From a phage, in the NCBI GenBank assembly GCA_013585095.1, contig GCA_013585095.1_3039.1: DNA of 64,000 nt; one strand, written 5' to 3'. This document shows, in pieces, positions 5,559 to 58,088 of the stretch; position 1 is the stretch's first letter, and every line of letters begins with the position of its first letter. The translations under genes were made by a program, and so were the position numbers. The notes under the pieces were generated by a model. The model made no database searches, had not been told where the DNA came from, and worked only from the letters and a program-made list of their open reading frames with translations.

Positions 5559-5930
5559 ATGTTTAAAATCGGTAAGAAATATCGTATTCGCGAAGGCGAA
5601 GAAAAGAAATATCTAATGTCTGCTATTTATAGGAATGGTTCTATTAATGCTGTAATATCTACAAGCGAATTTATCGTTGAAGATATGAAAGGTCATAATG
5701 TTACGATGATTAGTACAGCGTCTGGAAATAACGGAAAAATTCTTCACAGTTTTCAGAGTAATGTTCTAATTTATGCTGAAGAATTTGACTTCTTCGAAGA
5801 AGTCACAGAAGATTTTGATTTTGAATGCACTATTACCATGAAATCTGGCGACCCTCTTTCCTTTACAGTTAAAGATGAAAGAAGTCGCTTGAGAATTATT
5901 AGTCTTCTTCAAGCTATTAAATTTAAGTGA
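5559..5930 (+). CDS. hypothetical protein
   Basis: 123 aa ORF, ATG start overlapping previous stop region. Confidence 0.5.
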   Translation: MFKIGKKYRIREGEEKKYLMSAIYRNGSINAVISTSEFIVEDMKGHNVTMISTASGNNGKILHSFQSNVLIYAEEFDFFEEVTEDFDFECTITMKSGDPLSFTVKDERSRLRIISLLQAIKFK

Positions 5931-5935
5931 AAATT

Positions 5936-6196
5936 ATGAAATATATTAATCGTTCTATCGCAGCATTAGTATTAGCAGTATCTTTAGTAGGATGTACTGA
6001 TGCTGATAATGCAACTAAAATTTTATCATCAAGTGGTTTTACGAATATTGAAATCACTGGATATAACTGGTTCGGTTGCTCTGAAAATGATTTCCAACAT
6101 ACTGGATTTCGTGCTATTGGACCTACCGGGCAGAAAGTAGAAGGAACAGTATGTTCTGGGCTGTTCTTTAAGGATTCAACTATTCGTTTTAAATAA
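5936..6196 (+). CDS. putative lipoprotein
   Basis: MKYINRSIAALVLAVSLVGC signal peptide with lipobox LVGC; hairpin follows. Confidence 0.5.
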   Translation: MKYINRSIAALVLAVSLVGCTDADNATKILSSSGFTNIEITGYNWFGCSENDFQHTGFRAIGPTGQKVEGTVCSGLFFKDSTIRFK

Positions 6197-6220
6197 AAGG
6201 CCTTCGGGCCTTTAGCTTTA
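6197..6220 (+). terminator. UUCG-tetraloop hairpin, weak intrinsic terminator
   Basis: aaggccTTCGggcctt followed by tttagcttta. Confidence 0.45.
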
Positions 6221-6265
6221 TGATTACTGGAGTATAATATTCCCGAAACCAAACGAGGATAAGTG

Positions 6266-8083
6266 ATGATTAAGAATGAAATTAAAATTCTGAGCGATAT
6301 TGAACATATCAAAAAGCGTAGCGGCATGTACATTGGCTCTTCAGCTAATGAAATGCATGAGCGCTTTCTGTTTGGTAAATGGGAAAGTGTTCAGTATGTA
6401 CCTGGTCTTGTTAAGCTTATTGATGAAATTATCGATAACTCAGTAGATGAAGGTATTCGTACTAAGTTTAAATTCGCAAATAAAATTAATGTTACTATCA
6501 AAAACAATCAAGTAACAGTTGAAGATAACGGTCGTGGTATTCCACAAGCGATGGTTAAAACACCTACCGGTGAAGAAATTCCTGGTCCAGTTGCTGCTTG
6601 GACTATTCCAAAAGCGGGTGGTAACTTCGGTGATGATAAAGAACGCGTCACCGGTGGTATGAATGGTGTTGGTTCTAGTTTGACAAACATTTTTTCTGTG
6701 ATGTTTGTCGGTGAAACTGGCGACGGTCAAAATAATATTGTAGTTCGTTGTTCAAATGGCATGGAAAATAAATCCTGGGAAGATATTCCTGGAAAATGGA
6801 AAGGAACCCGTGTTACTTTCATTCCTGATTTTATGTCATTTGAAACTAATGAGCTGTCCCAAGTTTATCTTGACATTACACTGGATCGTCTCCAGACACT
6901 TGCTGTTGTTTATCCTGATATTCAATTTACCTTTAATGGTAAAAAGGTTCAGGGCAATTTTAAGAAATATGCACGACAGTATGATGAACATGCTATTGTT
7001 CAAGAACAAGAAAATTGTTCTATTGCGGTTGGTCGTTCACCGGATGGTTTTCGTCAGTTAACATACGTCAATAACATTCACACTAAGAATGGTGGCCATC
7101 ATATTGACTGTGTTATGGATGATATTTGTGAAGACCTCATTCCACAAATCAAGCGCAAGTTCAAAATTGATGTAACTAAAGCGCGTGTCAAAGAATGTTT
7201 GACTATCGTTATGTTTGTTCGTGATATGAAAAACATGCGATTTGATTCTCAGACTAAAGAGCGTTTGACTTCTCCATTTGGTGAAATTCGTAGTCATATT
7301 CAGCTTGATGCTAAAAAGATTTCACGCGCTATTCTAAATAATGAAGCTATTTTGATGCCAATTATTGAAGCTGCCTTGGCCCGTAAATTAGCAGCAGAAA
7401 AAGCAGCAGAAACTAAAGCAGCTAAAAAGGCTTCTAAAGCTAAGGTTCATAAACATATCAAAGCGAATCTTTGCGGTAAAGATGCTGATACTACTCTTTT
7501 CTTGACTGAGGGTGATTCTGCTATCGGATATCTTATTGATGTTCGTGATAAAGAACTTCATGGTGGTTATCCATTACGTGGTAAAGTTCTTAACAGCTGG
7601 GGTATGTCATATGCTGATATGCTTAAAAACAAAGAACTGTTTGATATTTGCGCAATCACTGGATTAGTTCTTGGTGAAAAAGCTGAAAACTTGAATTATC
7701 ATAATATTGCTATTATGACCGATGCTGACCATGATGGTTTAGGAAGCATTTATCCTTCTCTGCTCGGATTTTTTAGTAATTGGCCAGAATTGTTTGAGCA
7801 AGGACGAATTCGCTTCGTCAAAACTCCTGTAATCATCGCTCAGGTCGGTAAAAAACAAGAATGGTTTTATACAGTCGCTGAATATGAGAGTGCCAAAGAT
7901 GCTCTACCTAAACATAGCATCCGTTATATTAAAGGACTTGGCTCTTTGGAAAAATCTGAATATCGTGAGATGATTCAAAATCCAGTATATGATGTTGTTA
8001 AACTTCCTGAGAATTGGAAAGAGCTTTTTGAAATGCTCATGGGAGATAATGCTGACCTTCGTAAAGAATGGATGAGCCAGTAG
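6266..8083 (+). CDS. 39: topoisomerase II large subunit (GyrB-like ATPase + Toprim), unsplit
   Basis: 605 aa; DNSVDEG (GHKL), LTEGDSA and MTDADHDG (Toprim); no gene-60 split. Confidence 0.9.
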   Translation: MIKNEIKILSDIEHIKKRSGMYIGSSANEMHERFLFGKWESVQYVPGLVKLIDEIIDNSVDEGIRTKFKFANKINVTIKNNQVTVEDNGRGIPQAMVKTPTGEEIPGPVAAWTIPKAGGNFGDDKERVTGGMNGVGSSLTNIFSVMFVGETGDGQNNIVVRCSNGMENKSWEDIPGKWKGTRVTFIPDFMSFETNELSQVYLDITLDRLQTLAVVYPDIQFTFNGKKVQGNFKKYARQYDEHAIVQEQENCSIAVGRSPDGFRQLTYVNNIHTKNGGHHIDCVMDDICEDLIPQIKRKFKIDVTKARVKECLTIVMFVRDMKNMRFDSQTKERLTSPFGEIRSHIQLDAKKISRAILNNEAILMPIIEAALARKLAAEKAAETKAAKKASKAKVHKHIKANLCGKDADTTLFLTEGDSAIGYLIDVRDKELHGGYPLRGKVLNSWGMSYADMLKNKELFDICAITGLVLGEKAENLNYHNIAIMTDADHDGLGSIYPSLLGFFSNWPELFEQGRIRFVKTPVIIAQVGKKQEWFYTVAEYESAKDALPKHSIRYIKGLGSLEKSEYREMIQNPVYDVVKLPENWKELFEMLMGDNADLRKEWMSQ

Positions 8084-19646: not shown

Positions 19647-20432
19647 TTATACTCTTGAACCATATATTGTGCCAACTTTAGTCCAAGTTGGAGCATTACC
19701 AGTAACAGCTTTACCAGCCGCACCGCCGTTATATTCTGATCCTTGACCACGAATATTACATTTACCACCTGCGGCACCAGCATCACCGCCGTTTCCGCCA
19801 TTGTAGATACCGTTTACAGACCCTTTACCGGGTGCAGAAATAGTACCAGCAGTAGCACCTTGTTCCATATTAGCAGACCCACCAGCAGCGCCAAATGGAC
19901 GACCGCCGCCACCGCCAAAGGTTAATCTCATTTGTGAAAAAGGAGAATAATACCCGCCGCCACCGCCGCCACCGCCGCCTGCGATAACACCATTGTTGTT
20001 AATACGTAATCTAGTTCCAATTCCGTTATTTATTGCAGTTCCTCCTGCTCCACCAGCAGAGTTATTTCCGCCATTCCCGCCGCGACCCCAAACATGCACG
20101 CCTGAATTGATATTAAGTGTCACGTATGCATTAGTTAATGAGCTAGGAAAATCTAAGCACGGTTGACCTGTCGATGAAGAAACGATATTGCCTGTAATTG
20201 TAATAACAACAGGAGTACTTCCTTGGGCTTTTATCCAATTTATTAGTGTGTCTTTATTGTAAGAATTGCTAGCACCAATGCTATAATATACTTCTTTAGA
20301 TTGCCCAGCCATTGAACTCATCCAACCGGGAACTGAAACACGAACAGCTTTCATAGCAGCATCCATCCAGCGTTGTCCAGTTTCATTCACGGCAGATTCG
20401 CCAATCCAGCCAGGAACACCTACAATTGCCAT
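19647..20432 (-). CDS. 38: gp38 receptor-binding adhesin (T2/T6 type, glycine-rich motifs)
   Basis: 261 aa; poly-Gly motifs GGNGGNNSAGGAGG, GGGGGGGGGYY, GGGGRPFGAAGG, GGNGGDAGAAGG. Confidence 0.85.
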   Translation of the reverse strand: MAIVGVPGWIGESAVNETGQRWMDAAMKAVRVSVPGWMSSMAGQSKEVYYSIGASNSYNKDTLINWIKAQGSTPVVITITGNIVSSSTGQPCLDFPSSLTNAYVTLNINSGVHVWGRGGNGGNNSAGGAGGTAINNGIGTRLRINNNGVIAGGGGGGGGGYYSPFSQMRLTFGGGGGRPFGAAGGSANMEQGATAGTISAPGKGSVNGIYNGGNGGDAGAAGGKCNIRGQGSEYNGGAAGKAVTGNAPTWTKVGTIYGSRV

Positions 20433-32355: not shown

Positions 32356-32363
32356 TTGCTTAT

Positions 32364-32371
32364 TATAAATA
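32364..32371 (+). promoter_or_regulatory. late promoter TATAAATA upstream of gene 32
   Basis: exact tataaata about 85 nt upstream of the gene 32 ATG. Confidence 0.4.
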
Positions 32372-32388
32372 GATTATAATTATCTCAC

Positions 32389-32454
32389 TGACCAGCTATG
32401 AGGTCATACATCGTCATAGCACCAACTGTTAATTAAATTAAAAAGGAAATAAAA
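32389..32454 (+). promoter_or_regulatory. gene 32 autoregulatory translational operator (pseudoknot + A/U-rich tract)
   Basis: tgaccagctatgaggtcatacatcgtcatagca matches the remembered T4 gene 32 pseudoknot, then ttaattaaattaaaaaggaaataaaa before ATG. Confidence 0.7.
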
Positions 32455-34481: not shown

Positions 34482-35308
<827 letters not shown>

Positions 35309-35328
35309 AATAACACGTGGCGGAAAAT

Positions 35329-35676
35329 ATGAATTTTAATTATTATCCTATTCTATTAGAAAAAGACGCGAAACAGCCAAAATGGCAAGGTCCTCAGTTT
35401 ATTAAAGGTGTCTATCAATTAGTAGTTCCTAAAGACAAGATTTATAGTAGCTGTTTCACTGAATCCGCTTGTAGTATTTTTGGTAATAGTTCTCCGTATT
35501 GGAATTTTGACATAAAGCTGGATAGAAATATCGATATTTGGTTGAAAGCTATGGATATTGGTAATATCACGTTTGATGAGAATAATTATCATATTATTGG
35601 TCGCTTTTCCAAACGCGGTAAAGAATTATATTTCACACCTGAAATTGAGAGAAAATTTGATGCTAAACCGTATTGA
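35329..35676 (+). CDS. hypothetical protein between frd and td
   Basis: 115 aa from ATG 35329; track start is GTG 35317. Confidence 0.5.
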   Translation: MNFNYYPILLEKDAKQPKWQGPQFIKGVYQLVVPKDKIYSSCFTESACSIFGNSSPYWNFDIKLDRNIDIWLKAMDIGNITFDENNYHIIGRFSKRGKELYFTPEIERKFDAKPY

Positions 35677-35691
35677 TTATATAGGTGTTAA

Positions 35692-36552
35692 ATGAAACAA
35701 TACCAAGATTTAATTAAAGACATTTTTGAAAATGGTTATGAAACCGATGATCGTACAGGCACAGGAACAATCGCTTTGTTCGGTACTAAATTGCGTTGGG
35801 ATTTAACTAAAGGCTTTCCTGCAGTAACAACTAAAAAGCTCGCCTGGAACGCATGTATTGCTGAGCTTCTATGGTTTATTTCCGGTTCTACCAATGTTAA
35901 TGATTTACGTCTTCGTACTCATGGTAGTCTTATTCAAGGTAAAACTATCTGGGATGACAATTATGAAAACCAAGCTAAAGACCTAGGATATCATAGTGGT
36001 GAACTTGGTCCAATTTATGGAAAACAGTGGCGTGATTTCGGTGGTGTGGATCAATTAGTTGAAACTATTGATCGTATTAAAAAATTACCAACTGATCGAC
36101 GTCAAATCGTTTCAGCATGGAATCCAGCTGAAATCAATCAAATGGCATTACCACCCTGTCATATGTTCTATCAGTTTAATGTGCGTAATGGTTATCTTGA
36201 TTTACAATGGTACCAAAGAAGTGTAGATGTTTTCTTGGGATTGCCATTCAACATTGCCTCGTACGCTGCCTTGACACATATTGTGGCTAAGATGTGTAAT
36301 CTTATCCCAGGAGATTTGATATTTTCTGGTGGTAATACTCACATCTATATGAATCATACTGAGCAATGTAAAGAAATTTTACGTCGTGAGCCTAAAGAAC
36401 TATGTGAACTTAAAATTGATTGGCCTATAGAGTTTGGAAATTGTGACACCGAAACACAGCTTTACTGGTTAACTGAATACATGAAACCGAAAGATTTTAT
36501 CCTTGAAAATTATGAATCGCATTCAGCAATTAAAGGGAAAATGGCAATATGA
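35692..36552 (+). CDS. td: thymidylate synthase, uninterrupted (no intron)
   Basis: 286 aa continuous ORF; active-site [10 protein letters not shown]. Confidence 0.95.
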
Positions 36553-36812: not shown

Positions 36813-37092
36813 ATATAAATCCGACTTTGATGTTAATATTCACCGTGGTACATTTTGGGGAAATTACGTCGGTAAAGATGCTGGCAGCCGGGAGGCTGCC
36901 ATTGAATTATTCAAAAAAGATTTTATACGTCGAATTAAATCCGGAGAAATAACTAAAGCACATTTAGAGCCTTTACGTGGAATGAGGCTAGGATGCACAT
37001 GTAAACCAAAGCCGTGTCATGGTGATATAATAGCTCATATAGTTAACCGATTGTTTAAAGACGATTTTCAAGTTGAGGACTTATGCAATTAA
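36766..37092 (+). CDS. hypothetical protein; start uncertain (ATG 36766 or GTG 36805)
   Basis: 108 aa; overlaps previous ORF by 47 nt; Cys/His cluster [11 protein letters not shown]. Confidence 0.4.
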
Positions 37093-39347
37093 TTAATGTT
37101 ATCAAAAGTAGTGGTGTTTCTCAGAGCTTTGACCCACAAAAAATTATTAAAGTTTTATCTTGGGCAGCTGAAGGAACATCAGTAGATCCTTATGAATTAT
37201 ATGAAAATATTAAATCTTATCTCCGTGATGGAATGACAACTGATGATATTCAGACTATTGTCATTAAGGCTGCAGCGAATTCTATTTCGGTTGAAGAGCC
37301 TGATTATCAATATGTAGCTGCACGTTGTTTAATGTTCGCTCTTCGTAAGCATGTTTATGGACAGTATGAACCACGTTCATTTATTGACCATATTTCTTAC
37401 TGTGTAAATGAAGGTAAATATGACCCTGAATTATTGTCAAAATATTCAGCAGAAGAAATTACATTTTTAGAATCAAAAATTAAGCACGAGCGGGATATGG
37501 AATTTACTTATTCCGGGGCGATGCAATTAAAAGAAAAATATCTAGTTAAAGATAAAACCACTGGTCAAATTTATGAAACTCCACAGTTTGCATTTATGAC
37601 TATTGGAATGGCATTGCATCAAGATGAACCTGTTGATAGACTAAAACACGTTATCCGTTTTTATGAAGCAGTATCTACTCGACAGATTTCATTGCCAACT
37701 CCTATTATGGCTGGATGTCGTACTCCAACTCGGCAGTTTAGTTCATGCGTTGTTATTGAGGCAGGTGATTCATTAAAGTCTATCAATAAGGCTTCTGCTT
37801 CAATTGTTGAATATATCTCTAAACGCGCTGGAATTGGTATTAACGTTGGTATGATTCGTGCCGAAGGTTCTAAGATTGGCATGGGTGAAGTACGCCATAC
37901 TGGTGTTATTCCTTTTTGGAAACATTTTCAGACTGCAGTTAAATCATGTTCACAGGGTGGAATTCGTGGCGGCGCTGCTACTGCTTATTATCCTATTTGG
38001 CATTTGGAAGTTGAAAATCTTCTTGTTTTGAAAAATAACAAAGGCGTAGAAGAAAACCGCATTCGTCATATGGATTATGGCGTTCAACTGAATGACCTAA
38101 TGATGGAACGTTTTGGAAAGAACGATTACATTACTTTGTTCAGTCCGCATGAAATGGGTGGAGAGCTTTATTATTCTTATTTTAAAGACCAAGACCGTTT
38201 CCGTGAATTGTACGAAGCAGCAGAAAAAGACCCTAATATTCGCAAAAAGCGTATTAAAGCCCGTGAACTATTTGAATTGCTCATGACTGAACGTTCAGGA
38301 ACAGCAAGGATTTATGTGCAGTTCATTGATAATACGAATAACTATACTCCATTTATTCGTGAAAAGGCACCTATTCGTCAGAGTAACTTGTGCTGTGAAA
38401 TTGCTATTCCAACAAATGATGTGAATAGTCCTGATGCTGAAATTGGATTGTGCACGTTATCTGCATTTGTGCTGGATAACTTCGATTGGCAAGACCAAGA
38501 TAAAATTAATGAATTGGCAGAAGTCCAAGTTCGTGCTCTTGATAATCTTTTGGACTACCAAGGATATCCAGTTCCTGAAGCAGAAAAAGCTAAAAAGCGT
38601 CGAAACCTTGGTGTAGGTGTTACTAACTATGCAGCTTGGCTGGCAAGTAACTTTGCTTCTTATGAAGATGCTAACGATTTAACACATGAACTATTTGAGA
38701 GATTACAGTATGGACTCATTAAAGCATCCATTAAACTCGCCAAAGAAAAAGGACCTTGCGAATATTATTCAGACACTCGTTGGTCTCGAGGCGAATTACC
38801 TATCGACTGGTACAATAAAAAGATTGACCAAATCGCAGCTCCAAAATACGTTTGTGACTGGTCGTCGTTGCGGGAAGACCTTAAGCTCTTTGGCATCCGT
38901 AATAGCACATTATCAGCACTTATGCCATGTGAGTCATCTTCCCAAGTTTCTAACAGTACAAACGGTATCGAGCCTCCACGTGGACCAGTCTCTGTTAAAG
39001 AATCAAAAGAGGGCTCCTTTAATCAAGTCGTGCCCAATATTGAGCATAACATAGACCTCTATGATTATACCTGGAAATTAGCTAAGAAAGGTAATAAACC
39101 TTATCTTACGCAGGTAGCTATTATGCTGAAATGGGTATGTCAATCAGCTTCAGCGAATACATACTATGACCCTCAAATCTTCCCTAAAGGAAAGGTTCCA
39201 ATGTCAATAATGATTGATGACCTTTTGTATTTTTGGTACTTTGGTGGAAAAAATTTCTATTATCATAATACCCGTGATGGTTCTGGTACTGATGATTATG
39301 AAATAGAAACTCCAAAAGCTGAAGATTGTGCAGCGTGTAAATTGTAA
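37083..39347 (+). CDS. nrdA: ribonucleotide reductase large subunit (class Ia)
   Basis: 754 aa as in T4; catalytic SNLCCEIA; C-terminal CAACKL. Confidence 0.95.
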   Translation: MQLINVIKSSGVSQSFDPQKIIKVLSWAAEGTSVDPYELYENIKSYLRDGMTTDDIQTIVIKAAANSISVEEPDYQYVAARCLMFALRKHVYGQYEPRSFIDHISYCVNEGKYDPELLSKYSAEEITFLESKIKHERDMEFTYSGAMQLKEKYLVKDKTTGQIYETPQFAFMTIGMALHQDEPVDRLKHVIRFYEAVSTRQISLPTPIMAGCRTPTRQFSSCVVIEAGDSLKSINKASASIVEYISKRAGIGINVGMIRAEGSKIGMGEVRHTGVIPFWKHFQTAVKSCSQGGIRGGAATAYYPIWHLEVENLLVLKNNKGVEENRIRHMDYGVQLNDLMMERFGKNDYITLFSPHEMGGELYYSYFKDQDRFRELYEAAEKDPNIRKKRIKARELFELLMTERSGTARIYVQFIDNTNNYTPFIREKAPIRQSNLCCEIAIPTNDVNSPDAEIGLCTLSAFVLDNFDWQDQDKINELAEVQVRALDNLLDYQGYPVPEAEKAKKRRNLGVGVTNYAAWLASNFASYEDANDLTHELFERLQYGLIKASIKLAKEKGPCEYYSDTRWSRGELPIDWYNKKIDQIAAPKYVCDWSSLREDLKLFGIRNSTLSALMPCESSSQVSNSTNGIEPPRGPVSVKESKEGSFNQVVPNIEHNIDLYDYTWKLAKKGNKPYLTQVAIMLKWVCQSASANTYYDPQIFPKGKVPMSIMIDDLLYFWYFGGKNFYYHNTRDGSGTDDYEIETPKAEDCAACKL

Positions 39348-39988
39348 TGAATTATCAAAAAATCTATAACGACCTAATTTCCCGAGCTCAGGCTCGGGAA
39401 CCTTTATTAGGATATAAAGAGACTCATCATATAATCCCTAGATGCATGGGAGGTTCTGATGATAAAGAAAATTTAGTTGAATTAACAGGTAGAGAGCATT
39501 TTATAGCTCATTGGCTTTTATGCAAAATATATGACACACCAGGATTAAAGAAAGCTTTTGGTTTAATGTGCTTGACTGGTAAAAATCGCTCATATAAAAT
39601 TTCTTCTCAACTATACGAATTAGGTAGACGACGTTTATCTGAAGCTGCTATAGGACGTGAAGTTTCTATAGAAACCAGGGAAAAGATAAGTAGAGCTCTT
39701 AAAGGAAGGAAATTTACCAAAGAGCATTTAGCTCGCATGAGAAAACCTAAAACCGAAGAAGCTAAAAAGAATATAGCTGCTGCTAAAGTCGGCGTGCTTA
39801 ATCCGATGTATGGTACAATCTCTCCGACAAGAGATGTTCCTCATACTAAAGAAACTCGCGATTTGATTTCTTTGAGAACTAAGCAAAGTATAGAGTATCC
39901 GCCTTGTCCGCATTGTGGCAAGAAAGTTAATAAAGGCAATGCTCTAAGATGGCATTATGATAAATGTAAATTTAAGGATTCTAAATGA
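39347..39988 (+). CDS. HNH homing endonuclease with NUMOD3-like repeats (mobE-like)
   Basis: HHIIPRCMGGSDDKENLVELTGREHFIAH HNH motif; located between nrdA and nrdB. Confidence 0.75.
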   Translation: MNYQKIYNDLISRAQAREPLLGYKETHHIIPRCMGGSDDKENLVELTGREHFIAHWLLCKIYDTPGLKKAFGLMCLTGKNRSYKISSQLYELGRRRLSEAAIGREVSIETREKISRALKGRKFTKEHLARMRKPKTEEAKKNIAAAKVGVLNPMYGTISPTRDVPHTKETRDLISLRTKQSIEYPPCPHCGKKVNKGNALRWHYDKCKFKDSK

Positions 39989-41163
39989 GTACAGTTTTTA
40001 ATACATCCCCTGTTAATATTTTGACTGAGCCGATGTTTTTTGGTTCTGGATTGGGTTTAGCTCGATATGATATTCAACGGCATAGAGTATTTGAAGAACT
40101 TATTGAGAAATCTTTATCATTTTTCTGGCGTCCTGAAGAAGTAAACTTGATGATGGATGCTGCACAGTTTAATAAGCTTCCTCAGTATCAGCAAAATATT
40201 TTTACTAATAATCTGAAGTATCAATCACTTTTGGATAGCATTCAGGGTCGTGCGCCGTCTGCTGTACTTATGTCATTAATTTCAGACCCGAGCCTTGATA
40301 CATGGGTTGCTACATGGACTTTTAGTGAAACTATTCACAGTCGTTCATATACTCATATCATGCGAAATCTTTATACTGATCCATCGAAGGTATTTGATGA
40401 AATTGTATTAGATGAAGCTATTATGAAACGTGCTGAATCCATTGGACGTTATTATGATGATGTTCTGATTAAAACTCGCTATTGGGAAAACGCTAAAGCT
40501 GATATCGAATACCAAAAAGAAATTAATGCAGACGAAGACGTTATTGAAGATGCTATTGAGCATGAGACATATTGGAAGCGTGAGCTAATGAAATCTCTTT
40601 ACCTCTGTTTGCATGTAATCAACGCATTGGAAGCTATTCGTTTTTATGTATCTTTCGCATGTACCTTTAACTTCCATAAGAACATGGAAATCATGGAAGG
40701 TAATGCCAAGATTATGAAGTTCATTGCACGCGATGAACAGCTTCACCTTAAAGGCACCCAATATATTATTCGTCAACTTCAATCTGGTACTGATGGCGAT
40801 CAATGGGTTAAAATTGCTCAAGAGTGTGAACAAGAAGCAGTTGATATTTTCATGGAAGTTAACCGCCAAGAAAAAGATTGGGCAGTTCATTTATTTAAAG
40901 ATGGCGATGTTCCTGGATTAAATACAAATAGCATGTGGAGCTTTATTGATTACTTAACTGTATCTCGTATGAAACAGTGTGGTCTTCCATGCCCAATTAC
41001 CGATGCTCCGGTTAAACACCCGTATCCTTGGATTCGTGAATATCTTAATTCTGATAATGTTCAATCCGCGCCACAAGAAGTAGAACTGTCATCTTATCTT
41101 GTAGCACAGATTGATAATGATGTTGATGATAAAGTTATGATGAGTTTTAAAAAATATTTTTAA
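39985..41163 (+). CDS. nrdB: ribonucleotide reductase small subunit, uninterrupted (no intron)
   Basis: 392 aa continuous ORF; di-iron ExxH motif SETIHSRSY. Confidence 0.9.
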   Translation: MSTVFNTSPVNILTEPMFFGSGLGLARYDIQRHRVFEELIEKSLSFFWRPEEVNLMMDAAQFNKLPQYQQNIFTNNLKYQSLLDSIQGRAPSAVLMSLISDPSLDTWVATWTFSETIHSRSYTHIMRNLYTDPSKVFDEIVLDEAIMKRAESIGRYYDDVLIKTRYWENAKADIEYQKEINADEDVIEDAIEHETYWKRELMKSLYLCLHVINALEAIRFYVSFACTFNFHKNMEIMEGNAKIMKFIARDEQLHLKGTQYIIRQLQSGTDGDQWVKIAQECEQEAVDIFMEVNRQEKDWAVHLFKDGDVPGLNTNSMWSFIDYLTVSRMKQCGLPCPITDAPVKHPYPWIREYLNSDNVQSAPQEVELSSYLVAQIDNDVDDKVMMSFKKYF

Positions 41164-44210: not shown

Positions 44211-45435
<1,225 letters not shown>

Positions 45436-53910: not shown

Positions 53911-53933
53911 GAATAAACACTAGAGAGGATATG

Positions 53934-56027
53934 ATGGAACTCATTACAGAATTATTTGACGAAGATACTACTCTTCCGATTACAAACTTAAATCCAAAGA
54001 AGAAAATACCACAAATTTTTTCAGTTCATGTTGATGATGCAATTGAACAACCAGGCTTTCGTTTATGTACCTATACATCTGGAGGTGATACTAATCGTGA
54101 TTTAAAGATGGGCGATAAAATGATGCATATTGTTCCTTTTACATTAACTGCTAAAGGTTCAATTGCTAAATTAAAAGGTCTTGGTCCAAGCCCGATTAAT
54201 TATATCAATTCAGTTTTTACTGTTGCAATGCAAACAATGCGTCAATATAAAATTGATGCCTGCATGCTTCGTATTCTTAAGTCTAAAACCGCCGGTCAAG
54301 CTCGACAAATTCAACTTATTGCTGATAGACTCATCCGCAGTCGTTCAGGTGGCAGATACGTCCTTCTTAAGGAACTCTGGGATTACGATAAAAAGTATGC
54401 ATATATTCTTATACATCGTAAAAATGTATCACTAGAAGACATTCCAGGAGTTCCAGAAATTAGCACCGAGCTCTTTACTAAAGTTGAATCGAAGGTCGGT
54501 GATGTTTATATCAATAAAGATAATGGAGCTCAAGTAACTAAAAATGAGGCAATTGCAGCATCTATTGCACAAGAAAATGATAAACGTTCTGACCAAGCTG
54601 TAATCGTTAAAGTTAAAATTTCCCGTAGAGCAATTGCGCAAAGTCAATCATTGGAATCTTCTAGATTTGAAAGTGAATTATTCCAGAAGTATGAATCTAC
54701 AGCAGCTAATTTTAATAAACCTGCTACCGCTCCTTTAATTCCCGAAGCAGAAGAAATGAAGCTTGGAATTAATTCATTAGCTTCTAAAACTAAGGCAGCA
54801 AAAATTATTGCCGAAGGAACTGCAGATGAACTTCACTATGACTATAAATTCTTTTCAAAAAGTGAGGTTGATGAAGTTTCAGAAAAAATTAAAGATGTAA
54901 TTCTTAATGCGATTAAAAATGAACCAACTACTTCAATAAAATGTTTAGAGAAATACGCAGCAGCTGTTAATCAACTCTTTGAAGAATATAAAGATAATTG
55001 GCTTGATAAACATAATAAAACTCGTAAAGGGCAGCCAGATGAAGTCTGGGAAGAAATGACTAAAAATTCCTGGAACGCAGCAAAAACTAAATTCCTCAAA
55101 AGAATGATTTATAGTTTTTCTGGAATTGGTGCAGGTCCAATGATTGATATTACTATTGCCCGTGATGGTTCTAAATATACTCCATCACAAAAGCGCGGCA
55201 TTAGAGAGTATTGTGGATCAGGATATACTGACATTAATAATCTTCTTTTAGGTCGTTACAATCCAGAACGATATGATGTAATGAGTGAAAAAGAAATTGA
55301 ATCTGCTATAAATAATTTAGATTCAGCTTTTGAAAATGGTGACCGCATACCGGAAGGCATTACAGTTTATCGTGCTCAAAGTATGACTGCTCCTATATAC
55401 GAAGCACTAGTTAAAAATAAAGTATTCTATTTCAGAAATTTTGTATCTACTTCTTTAACTCCTATCATTTTTGGACGTTTTGGAATTACACATGCTGGTA
55501 TTGGTCTTTTAGAACCAGAAGCTCGCAATGAATTAACAGTTGATAAAAATGAAGAAGGAATAACTATTAATCCAAGCGAAATAAGAGCGTATAAAGAAAA
55601 TCCTGAATACGTTAAAGTTCAAATAGGATGGGCAATTGATGGAGCTCATAAAGTTAATGTTGTATATCCAGGAAGTCTCGGAATAGCAACCGAAGCTGAA
55701 GTTATTCTACCACGCGGATTGATGGTCAAAGTTAATAAAATAACTGATGCTTCTAATAACGACGGAACAACATCTAATAATACAAAACTCATTCAAGCTG
55801 AAGTTATGACTACGGAAGAACTCACCGAATCCGTAATTTATGACGGTGACCGTCTAATGGAAACCGGCGAAGTAGTTGCAATGACAGGTGATATTGAAAT
55901 AGAAGACAGAGTTGACTTTGCATCATTTGTTTCATCAAATGTTAAACAAAAAGTAGAATCATCTCTTGGAATTATTGCATCTTGCATAGATATTGCAAAC
56001 ATGCCTTACAAGTTCGTTCAAGGATAA
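53934..56027 (+). CDS. alt: Alt ADP-ribosyltransferase (copy 1)
   Basis: N-terminus MELITELFDEDTTLPITNLNPKKKIPQIF matches remembered T4 Alt; R (VYRAQS), STS (FVSTSL), ExE (ATEAEVILPRG); late promoter upstream. Confidence 0.85.
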   Translation: MELITELFDEDTTLPITNLNPKKKIPQIFSVHVDDAIEQPGFRLCTYTSGGDTNRDLKMGDKMMHIVPFTLTAKGSIAKLKGLGPSPINYINSVFTVAMQTMRQYKIDACMLRILKSKTAGQARQIQLIADRLIRSRSGGRYVLLKELWDYDKKYAYILIHRKNVSLEDIPGVPEISTELFTKVESKVGDVYINKDNGAQVTKNEAIAASIAQENDKRSDQAVIVKVKISRRAIAQSQSLESSRFESELFQKYESTAANFNKPATAPLIPEAEEMKLGINSLASKTKAAKIIAEGTADELHYDYKFFSKSEVDEVSEKIKDVILNAIKNEPTTSIKCLEKYAAAVNQLFEEYKDNWLDKHNKTRKGQPDEVWEEMTKNSWNAAKTKFLKRMIYSFSGIGAGPMIDITIARDGSKYTPSQKRGIREYCGSGYTDINNLLLGRYNPERYDVMSEKEIESAINNLDSAFENGDRIPEGITVYRAQSMTAPIYEALVKNKVFYFRNFVSTSLTPIIFGRFGITHAGIGLLEPEARNELTVDKNEEGITINPSEIRAYKENPEYVKVQIGWAIDGAHKVNVVYPGSLGIATEAEVILPRGLMVKVNKITDASNNDGTTSNNTKLIQAEVMTTEELTESVIYDGDRLMETGEVVAMTGDIEIEDRVDFASFVSSNVKQKVESSLGIIASCIDIANMPYKFVQG

Positions 56028-56030
56028 ATC

Positions 56031-58088
56031 ATGGAACTTATTACAGAATTATTTGACGGCGCTTCGGCGCCGGTTGTTAACTTAAATCCTAAGCATAAAA
56101 TACCACAAATTTTTGCTATTCAAGCCGGCGAAGAAAGTGTGCTTCCTGGATTTAGATTTTGTACATACACCTCTGGCGGTGATACAAATAAAAACGTTAA
56201 GCCAGGCGACAAAATGATGCATATCGTAATGATAGGTGTCAACGAGAAATTATCGCTGGTTAAGCTTAGAAACTTGGGTGGAAATCCAATTGGCGTCATT
56301 AATGCTGTTTTTGATACTGCTCTTCAAACAATGAAACAGTATAAAATTGACGCATGCCTATTCCGCGTACTAAAAAGTAAAACAAATGGCGCTGCTCGTC
56401 AAATGCAAGTTATTGCTGACCGTTTAGTACGTACTAAAGGAGCAGGTCGATATGTTCTTTTAAAGGAAATCTGGGATTATGATAAAAAGTACGCATATAT
56501 TATGGTTTACCGTAAAAATGCCAATTTAGAAGACATTCCAGGTGTACCTCCTATTTCAACTGAGTTATTCACAAAAGTTGAATCAAAGGTTGGTGATGTT
56601 TATGTAGACGTTAAAACAGGTAATGCTGTTCCTAAAGCTGTCGCTGTTGCTGCTTCTATTGCTTTAGAAAATGATAAGCGCACTGATCAAGCTGTTATTC
56701 AGAAAACTAAAATTAGTCGTCGATTAGCAGCACAAGCTCAATATTCTACTGTCGATGCTTCACTTCAGGGTGATAGCTTCGCTGCCAAGAAATATCAAGA
56801 GTTTGAATCTAAAGTTCCGGTATATAAAGCAGAAGGACCAATGAACTCCGGGGTTATCCAGATTGGTTCAAACTTTAGCAAAGGAGCTATCGGTGGTATG
56901 AGAAGTGCTTCTCGTTTTAAATCTAACGATTATGAACTAGAAAACTTCCGAAATCATATTGCATTAGCACATGCACGTTTACGTGATCCATCTATCAAGT
57001 TGCAGAGCGATATAACATATCAAGGTTCTCAAGAATATTTAAAGAATAAAGAATTCTTTGATTATAAAACTGATAAAATTTTAAGCGATCTTGCTGACAT
57101 TAATATTTCTAATAGCTTTGATGTTATTAAGAAAATTATCAATGATTTAGTTAAAGGTTCTAAAGCTACACCAGATGAAAAGACAGCTATTATTCAATTT
57201 GTCATGAATGGCATTTATAAATTGATTAATGAATCTGCCGCTCAGGCATATGAATATGCAAGTACTGAAGTAACTCCAAAAGGATTAACTCAGGCTGAGT
57301 CTGATGTAATTGAAGATTATTGTGCAGATTCATATGTTGAAATGAACTCGTTCCTTTTGGGTAAACCAGATTCTACCCGTGAAGAATATATGGAACGAGC
57401 TATTAAACATATTGAGACTCTTGATTCTGCATTCGCTAAAGGTTCAGTTCTTCCTCCAGGAACTACACTTTACCGTGGACAAGAAGTTACCTTTAAAACT
57501 TTGCGTCATAACATTGAAAATAAAATGTTCTATTTCAAGAACTTCGTATCCACATCGCTTAAACCAAATATCTTCGGTGAGCATGGTAAAAACTATATGG
57601 CTCTAGATGATTCCGGCGCAGTATTTTCTGGCGAAGGAGAAGGTTCCGTTGATGCAGAAGATTTGATGCATATGGGTAGTCATTCTACATATGCTAATGA
57701 AGATGCTGAAACTAGCGTGGGTATGGTAATTAAAGGAGCTGAGCGAATCAAAGTTATCGTTCCAGGTCATTTATCAGGATTTCCATCAGAAGCTGAAGTT
57801 ATTCTACCGCGTGGAATTTTACTGAAGATTAATAAAGTGAGCACGTACTTTATGAAAGAAACTGCTTATAACAAGTATCTAATAGAAGGTACAATCGTTC
57901 CTCCTTCTGAACAATTAGAGGAATCGGTATATGATGGCGACCATCTAATGGAAACTGGTGAAGTTCGTCCAATGGCTGGATTTAATCAATTCCTTGTAGA
58001 AGAATCAAAAGAAGAGGAAAACGAAGTTTCTCAAATCTTGGCTTCTTTGGTTAACATCAACGGAATGTCTAAAAAGTTCAAAATGTAG
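56031..58088 (+). CDS. Alt-like ADP-ribosyltransferase paralog (copy 2)
   Basis: 685 aa; shared N- and C-termini with copy 1, divergent middle; YRGQE, FVSTSL, PSEAEVILPRG. Confidence 0.8.
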   Translation: MELITELFDGASAPVVNLNPKHKIPQIFAIQAGEESVLPGFRFCTYTSGGDTNKNVKPGDKMMHIVMIGVNEKLSLVKLRNLGGNPIGVINAVFDTALQTMKQYKIDACLFRVLKSKTNGAARQMQVIADRLVRTKGAGRYVLLKEIWDYDKKYAYIMVYRKNANLEDIPGVPPISTELFTKVESKVGDVYVDVKTGNAVPKAVAVAASIALENDKRTDQAVIQKTKISRRLAAQAQYSTVDASLQGDSFAAKKYQEFESKVPVYKAEGPMNSGVIQIGSNFSKGAIGGMRSASRFKSNDYELENFRNHIALAHARLRDPSIKLQSDITYQGSQEYLKNKEFFDYKTDKILSDLADINISNSFDVIKKIINDLVKGSKATPDEKTAIIQFVMNGIYKLINESAAQAYEYASTEVTPKGLTQAESDVIEDYCADSYVEMNSFLLGKPDSTREEYMERAIKHIETLDSAFAKGSVLPPGTTLYRGQEVTFKTLRHNIENKMFYFKNFVSTSLKPNIFGEHGKNYMALDDSGAVFSGEGEGSVDAEDLMHMGSHSTYANEDAETSVGMVIKGAERIKVIVPGHLSGFPSEAEVILPRGILLKINKVSTYFMKETAYNKYLIEGTIVPPSEQLEESVYDGDHLMETGEVRPMAGFNQFLVEESKEEENEVSQILASLVNINGMSKKFKM

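Follow-up and report, generated by a model that had tools for sequence, protein, structure and literature searches.

Does the open reading frame between nrdA and nrdB in this phage encode a working homing endonuclease, and what does its presence say about how such genes spread? The window examined here is the whole stretch of DNA that was analysed, 64,000 nucleotides of contig GCA_013585095.1_3039.1 (GenBank assembly GCA_013585095.1). It is a segment of a Tequatrovirus genome lying in the orientation opposite to the T4 map, with the gene order dda, 39, rIIA, rIIB, 52, tail-fibre genes, 32, frd, td, nrdA, nrdB, 30, alt, to gene 29. The ORF listing and the sequence place an intact frame of 213 codons between nrdA and nrdB. 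The locus is made up as follows, with all positions given in the numbering of the window.

37083..39347, + strand: nrdA, the upstream gene, recognised by its ORF and by colinearity with T4; its promoters would have to drive mobE.
39345..39350, + strand: TAATGA, the overlap of the nrdA stop and the mobE start, read from the sequence; the upstream stretch is without a Shine-Dalgarno.
39347..39988, + strand: mobE, T6-type allele, free-standing HNH homing endonuclease ORF, 213 aa.
39985..41163, + strand: nrdB, continuous, 392 aa; in T4 an intron is inserted at the position matching 40660/40661.

The ORF begins at the nrdA stop, as the sequence-only reading had reported: its ATG (39347-39349) shares one base with the TAA of nrdA (39345-39347). 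At its other end, its TGA overlaps the nrdB ATG at 39985 (ATGA). The nrdA-mobE-nrdB layout with start/stop overlap is common to T4, T6, RB5 and LHE83, and the UAAUGA arrangement at nrdA/mobE has likewise been described in T4 (PMC2988022). The overlap suggests that translation of mobE is coupled to that of nrdA. Because the ORF fills the whole gap and both of its neighbours are continuous, it is not an intron-encoded endonuclease gene.

The sequence-only reading had pointed out that T4 mobE occupies this position, which left room for an ORF that is merely placed like mobE and unrelated to it. The alignments show that this is not the case. The gene is 97.4% identical at the nucleotide level to the annotated mobE of T6 (AY262134.2, MH550421) and 99.7% identical to its counterpart in phage VEc20, and the protein is 97% identical to T6 MobE and 77% identical to full-length T4 MobE, which is encoded in the same nrdA-nrdB gap. 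A Megablast search of the ORF against 50,697 phage records found it in 143 of them, 50 over its full length, and a 100% identical protein is already present in NCBI and UniRef. Judged by these comparisons, the ORF is an orthologue of mobE and carries the T6-type allele. T6 MobE matches that of the window in length (213 aa), position, overlaps with nrdA and nrdB, hairpin and promoter; it differs at six amino acids, and T6 has a td intron next door that is absent from the window.

The protein has the features expected from the HNH motif and NUMOD3-like repeats that had been noticed in the 213-aa translation. Both domains score above their Pfam cut-offs, with 23.1 bits for HNH (cut-off 21.4, aa 24-44) and 34.5 bits for NUMOD3 (PF07460; cut-off 20.4), and PHROG 655, ‘homing endonuclease’, matches the ORF over its full length (1.7e-66). 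The protein-coding features are these.

39416..39511, + strand: HNH catalytic core, aa 24-55 (KETHHIIPRCMGGSDDKENLVELTGREHFIAH), from Pfam, conservation and the AF2 model.
39653..39709, + strand: NUMOD3 motif, a predicted DNA-binding helix, aa 103-121, from Pfam; more degenerate copies lie downstream.
39905..39967, + strand: C-terminal CCHC zinc-finger motif (CPHCGKKVNKGNALRWHYDKC), from residue conservation.

Among 45 homologues from phages of Escherichia, Klebsiella, Salmonella, Acinetobacter, Proteus, Yersinia and Aeromonas, residues E25, H27, H28, N42, H51 and H55 are invariant and the zinc-finger residues C187, C190, H203 and C207 (motif CPxC...RWHYDxC) are at least 90% conserved, while the number of NUMOD3-like repeats between these two sets of residues differs. 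The AF2 model (pLDDT 82.7) has a confident beta-beta-alpha HNH core, a helical extension and a less confident C-terminus. In having a His...Asn...His motif on a beta-hairpin and helix, the protein belongs with the HNH (beta-beta-alpha-metal) superfamily. Searching PDB chain sequences with MobE returned HNH-motif matches only, all insignificant, and fold searches against solved structures matched the HNH core only weakly, none of the matches being significant. The zinc-finger region is weakly similar to the C-terminus of I-TevIII. Both the I-TevIII of RB3 and I-HmuI resemble MobE in joining an N-terminal HNH nuclease to an extended linker and DNA-binding modules (PMC2790892); these two are intron-encoded, whereas MobE is free-standing.

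How might such a gene be expressed from within the nrdA-nrdB gap? In T4, whose MobE was characterised by Wilson and Edgell in 2009, mobE lacks a promoter and is transcribed together with nrdA, a weak intrinsic terminator forms a hairpin 27 nt after the AUG, and the middle promoter of nrdB sits in the 3' region of mobE (PMC2790892). Two counterparts are found in the window.

39379..39400, + strand: internal hairpin with a 9-bp stem, a 4-nt loop and the tail CCTTTATT, found by a terminator scan; counterpart of the weak intrinsic terminator of T4 mobE.
39795..39819, + strand: MotA box and -10 element (TGCTTAA N12 TACAAT), an nrdB middle-promoter-like site in the 3' end of mobE, found by pattern search.

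The RNA of the hairpin has a predicted folding energy of -21.3 kcal/mol (z -3.6). The hairpin is identical in T4, T6 and RB5, and in the Klebsiella phage Mexia it carries a compensatory A>G / T>C pair in the stem; the MotA-type site is identical in T4. Both elements are kept in the diverged T6-type alleles of Mexia, LHE83 and LF82-1. By sequence, then, the regulatory elements mapped in T4 mobE are present in the window, their function having been shown in T4 only (PMC2790892). If they act in the same way here, mobE would be transcribed from the nrdA promoters, its own promoter being absent, and would probably be translated by coupling to nrdA termination (TAATG). Some 30 nt after the start of the ORF, the weak terminator hairpin would keep its level low, and the MotA-dependent middle promoter in its 3' end would restore transcription of nrdB.

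The protein also appears to be under selection, since dN/dS against diverged orthologues is 0.15 (LHE83, a Dhakavirus) and 0.19 (LF82-1), the ratio being low in the first, middle and last third alike. The mobE genes of LHE83 and LF82-1 have diverged from that of the window about as much as the flanking nrdA and nrdB have, which fits either a gene long established at this site or co-conversion of its flanks. We consider it very likely that the ORF is a working mobE of the T6 type, mobE being the gene for a free-standing HNH homing endonuclease in T-even phages. The grounds shown here are the orthology of the gene, catalytic and zinc-finger residues that are intact, regulatory elements that are conserved, and the purifying selection on the protein. 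The gene is real and its protein probably active; nuclease activity, target site and homing are inferred from T4.

What T4 offers is as follows. T4 mobE is inherited at about twice its input ratio, and neighbouring markers, the nrdB intron among them, are carried along (PMC2790892). A MobE-dependent nick in T2 nrdB was mapped to nt 122-126; once the HNH motif of T4 MobE is deleted, T2 nrdB is no longer nicked, and the high-frequency inheritance of the gene falls from a ratio of 2.1 to 1.5 (PMC2790892). These results do not come from purified T4 MobE, and Wilson and Edgell allow that it could act through another nuclease (PMC2790892). The corresponding site in the window is the following.

40098..40115, + strand: nrdB nt 114-131, counterpart of the polymorphic region around the T2 nick, placed by alignment; codon 42 is AAA (40108-40110).

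By analogy, in a mixed infection MobE would use its NUMOD3 repeats and zinc finger to attach to the conserved 5' part of nrdB in a mobE-less co-infecting phage, where its HNH domain would nick a single strand of nrdB near codon 42. Recombination-dependent repair from the mobE-bearing genome would then copy mobE, together with flanking nrdA and nrdB sequence, into the recipient. In T2H and RB14, which lack mobE, the site is taken up by an unrelated spacer of 51 nt, as expected for a presence/absence element.

The polymorphism at the nick raises the question of whether codon 42 protects carriers from their own nuclease. It is AAA in the window, AAG in the mobE-less phages T2H and RB14 and in nearly all mobE-less relatives from IMG/VR, and CGG in T4, a pattern that agrees with the published logos. 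A synonymous AAG>AAA change acting as a self-immunity mark would fit the window, T6, T2H and RB14. We reject it as a firm claim because Mexia and LHE83 carry a T6-type mobE together with AAG; Mexia and the mobE-less RB14 differ by one base across nrdB nt 106-156. Scans of IMG/VR for close relatives recovered 34 and 8 loci, mostly from distant T4-like phages, and these were too few for a test of association between mobE and nrdB haplotype.

Comparison with other phages shows that mobE of Tequatrovirus exists in three allele classes, which have their first ~171-180 nt in common: T6-type (213 aa), T4-type (232 aa) and RB3-type (243 aa). The T6-type allele is carried at full length in 50 records and the T4-type in 20, and the third class occurs in RB3, RB5 and many others. 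The allele of the window shares with that of T4 its locus, TAATGA start, internal terminator and embedded nrdB promoter, and the two proteins are nearly identical over residues 1-55 (the HNH head) and over the last 83 residues, the segment annotated as NrdB.1 in T4 (97.6%). Between these ends lies a region in which they differ.

39532..39737, + strand: middle cassette, consisting of the linker and NUMOD3 repeats, unalignable with the T4 allele.

The blastn chain against T4 breaks at this cassette (T4 140231-139967), and the DNA and protein alignments agree on it. The earlier reading of the sequence had missed that the allele is of the T6 type, with a middle differing from that of T4. RB3/RB5-type MobE occupies the same locus, and the first ~171 nt of its gene, covering the HNH head and hairpin, are nearly identical to those of the window; the remainder is unrelated in sequence (42% identity overall), and the gene does not have the shared 3' end that bears the conserved promoter stretch.

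Because the middle third of the T6-type protein differs from that of T4 and the protein is 19 aa shorter, its nick position or specificity could differ as well. This leads to the alternative that survives best, namely that T6-type MobE is active, but that its different linker/NUMOD3 cassette directs it to another nick position or target, the three alleles being competing specificities. The divergence of all three classes downstream of the shared head would fit, and T4-type and T6-type alleles adjoin different nrdB 5' haplotypes (CGG CAG ATC AGT and AAA TCT TTA TCA, respectively). This linkage could, however, be mere hitchhiking. The C-terminal segment, 97.6% identical to that of T4, contains the zinc finger that is presumed to help bind DNA, and the FFWRPEE-coding block, the proposed binding site, is conserved everywhere, both of which speak against this reading. 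We regard altered specificity as possible but rather unlikely. Its broader form, in which alleles sharing the HNH head and hairpin have swapped cassettes that give different nrdB nick positions or preferences, making the nrdA/nrdB gap a multi-allelic battleground, is a speculative proposal that we think doubtful. If it were true, the allele of the window could invade, or resist, phages with another mobE allele.

A second alternative accepts the gene and denies the nuclease: mobE could be a retired endonuclease kept as a regulatory cassette, since its deletion would cost the embedded nrdB middle promoter, the Shine-Dalgarno and the terminator that balances nrdA and nrdB. In the view of Wilson and Edgell, loss of the gene is selected against on account of the promoter embedded in it (PMC2790892), and the promoter and hairpin are indeed the most conserved DNA features across diverged alleles. 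When T4 and the window are compared, mobE is more alike at its 5' and 3' ends than the flanking nrdA and nrdB are, and one phage in IMG/VR retains only the start of mobE, the hairpin and the 3' end. Against this stands the protein itself. In the middle third, where there is no known regulatory DNA, dN/dS is 0.12-0.24, and the HNH and zinc-finger residues are all intact across genera, a pattern not expected without protein function. We find it quite improbable that mobE persists for its regulatory DNA alone, and keep to a functional mobE as the preferred reading.

That the ORF is a decaying pseudogene or arose by chance, as the short annotations in T4 NC_000866 (141 and 83 aa) and Mexia (138 aa) might suggest, is refuted to the point of being negligible by the full-length ORF in the window, T6, LHE83, LF82-1 and Mexia, by the single 232-aa ORF of resequenced T4 and by dN/dS far below 1. 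The T4 reference NC_000866 splits the region into mobE and nrdB.1 in different frames; because resequenced T4 (MT984581) has a single 699-nt ORF, the split is a trait of the old reference, not of the gene. In Mexia it is likewise the record that annotates mobE at only 138 aa.

We then turn to the surroundings of mobE. The sequence-only reading had described td and nrdB as continuous and gp39 as a single 605-aa ORF, with introns hidden in td or nrdB as the way in which it could be wrong. The two relevant genes other than nrdB are located as follows.

35692..36552, + strand: td, continuous, 286 aa; in T4 an intron is inserted at the position matching 36241/36242.
6266..8083, + strand: gene 39 as a single ORF, 605 aa, lacking the mobA/60.1 block and 50-nt bypass gap of T4; the junction is at 7734/7735.

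Comparison with the T4 exon junctions gives clean, precise gaps that bear out this description, each T4 intron being missing as one block. In td, a block of ~1016 nt is missing exactly at the exon junction; in nrdB, the intron accounts for a single clean gap of 598 nt, exactly at the insertion site; and in gene 39, the missing 1053 nt correspond to mobA, 60.1 and the 50-nt bypass gap, with Pfam gyrase B and Toprim domains covering the entire ORF. An Rfam gathering search found no group I intron in the window; the same search also missed the known td and nrdB introns of T4, so the absence of introns rests on exact colinearity with the T4 exons. T4 nrdB contains an intron with a defunct I-TevIII that is mobilised by MobE in trans, and the window has nothing comparable.

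Other homing endonuclease genes are missing too. segG is absent as a clean block between genes 59 and 32 (window 32356-32392), and of the five T4 endonuclease loci of the interval (mobA, segG, I-TevI, mobE, I-TevIII) one, mobE, is present. A tblastn search of the window with the T4 endonucleases found nothing beyond the mobE ORF. In a Pfam scan of the 95 window ORFs, HNH occurred only in mobE and GIY-YIG only in denA, which encodes the ordinary endonuclease II; no nuclease domain was found in the ORFs that are extra relative to T4 (5559..5930, 35317..35676 and 44211..44531). The description of this backbone as poor in mobile elements holds to the extent that, within the window, mobE is the sole homing endonuclease gene found.

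How unusual is this configuration? A td without intron, a T6-type mobE and an nrdB without intron together align as one piece of 5472 nt (or 5463 nt) in nine phages (FL08, AdolfPortmann, slur02, slur04, slur11, slur13, FelixPlatter, Ge15 and KAW1E185), and the layout is thus shared by at least nine sequenced phages. T6-type mobE is also found with the td intron (T6, VEc20, JEP6, Lutter and others) and with both introns (HY03, SHFML-26), so that it occurs with zero, one or two introns. With 15 endonuclease genes, T4 is the exception among T-even phages, and the endonuclease-poor state is the usual one (PMC2790892). The suggestion that an endonuclease-poor backbone carrying mobE would be useful for tracing endonuclease spread is therefore right about the layout, which is real, but overstates its significance, given that at least nine phages share it and that T4 is the outlier.

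The mobE described here is a known gene in a known configuration, its allele already annotated in T6 and present in some fifty deposited phage genomes; as its position, regulation and homing have been published for T4, it carries little weight as a discovery. The window adds one more data point to the view that mobE and the introns of td and nrdB assort independently. Most of the remaining interest lies in the cassette-like variation among alleles and its possible tie to target choice; this variation could make mobE a tractable system for studying how the specificity of homing endonucleases changes.

Outside the mobE locus, several genes of the window differ from those of T4:

5559-5930: a protein of 123 aa whose N-terminus resembles goF, between the positions of 39.2 and 39.1 (PHROG 622)
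19647-20432: gp38, a T2/T6-type adhesin (Pfam GP38) rather than one of the T4 type
44211-44531: a 106-aa protein between pseT.1 and pseT (PHROG 2364)
53931-58088: a pair of alt-like ADP-ribosyltransferase genes, both full-length and coding for 698 and 685 aa; in T4 there is a single one plus fragments

The ORFs at 5559-5930 and 44211-44531 both lack a T4 counterpart, and no nuclease domain was found in either.

Closer to mobE, the td and nrdB genes and the junction upstream of td also depart from T4:

35302-35310 and 35689-35697: the two copies of a 9-bp direct repeat, TAAATGAAA, on both flanks of td.1
35317..35676: td.1, a 119-aa ORF between frd and td
40512-40523: a 12-nt insertion in nrdB relative to T4

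While frd and td overlap directly in T4, in the window they are separated by the 119-aa ORF, which the records of T6 and T2H list as td.1. This ORF falls into PHROG 1928, a class of unknown function, and found no match in Pfam. Because the flanking 9-mer is present as a single copy in T4, formed where the end of frd (stop) overlaps the start of td, td.1 looks like an inserted cassette (35302-35697).

The window td itself (35692-36552) is an RB14-type allele, being 97% identical to that of RB14 and only 78% identical to both the T4 exons and T2H. Numerous substitutions are found over the stretch that matches the homing site of I-TevI. In nrdB, the four-codon insertion results in a protein of 392 aa, as compared to 388 aa in T4. 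Over the ~140 nt that precede the site of intron insertion, identity to T4 is only 73%; downstream of that site it is 97%. A search of the T4 locus (134000-146500) at Rfam gathering thresholds did not report the group I introns of td and nrdB. Phage introns that contain ORFs therefore cannot be excluded on the strength of an empty Rfam search.

The annotation of mobE varies between records. NC_000866 lists a 141-aa mobE and a separate 83-aa nrdB.1 in a different frame (L001, the T4 reference locus, 5717-6417). Resequenced T4 strains (MT984581; L039 1501-2199) encode a single 232-aa mobE ORF, and are 2 nt shorter than NC_000866 there. The division into two ORFs probably stems from a mistake in the older reference. 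In the Klebsiella phage Mexia record only a 138-aa mobE ORF is annotated; the entire 213-aa frame is open.

A distant T4-like phage carries an internally deleted mobE:

L031 (IMGVR_UViG_2974546015_000001) 6833-7000: a 168-nt nrdA-nrdB spacer

Retained are the mobE start (ATGAATTATCAAAAAA), a hairpin, and the final ~90 nt, in which the end coding for the zinc finger lies. The spacer is clearly what is left of a decayed mobE element. The Mexia hairpin (L051 1501-1570), which lies within coding sequence, carries a compensatory double change from CCCGAGC/GCTCGGG to CCCGGGC/GCCCGGG. This change supports the idea that the RNA structure of the mobE hairpin, the counterpart of a weak intrinsic terminator mapped in T4 mobE, is under selection.
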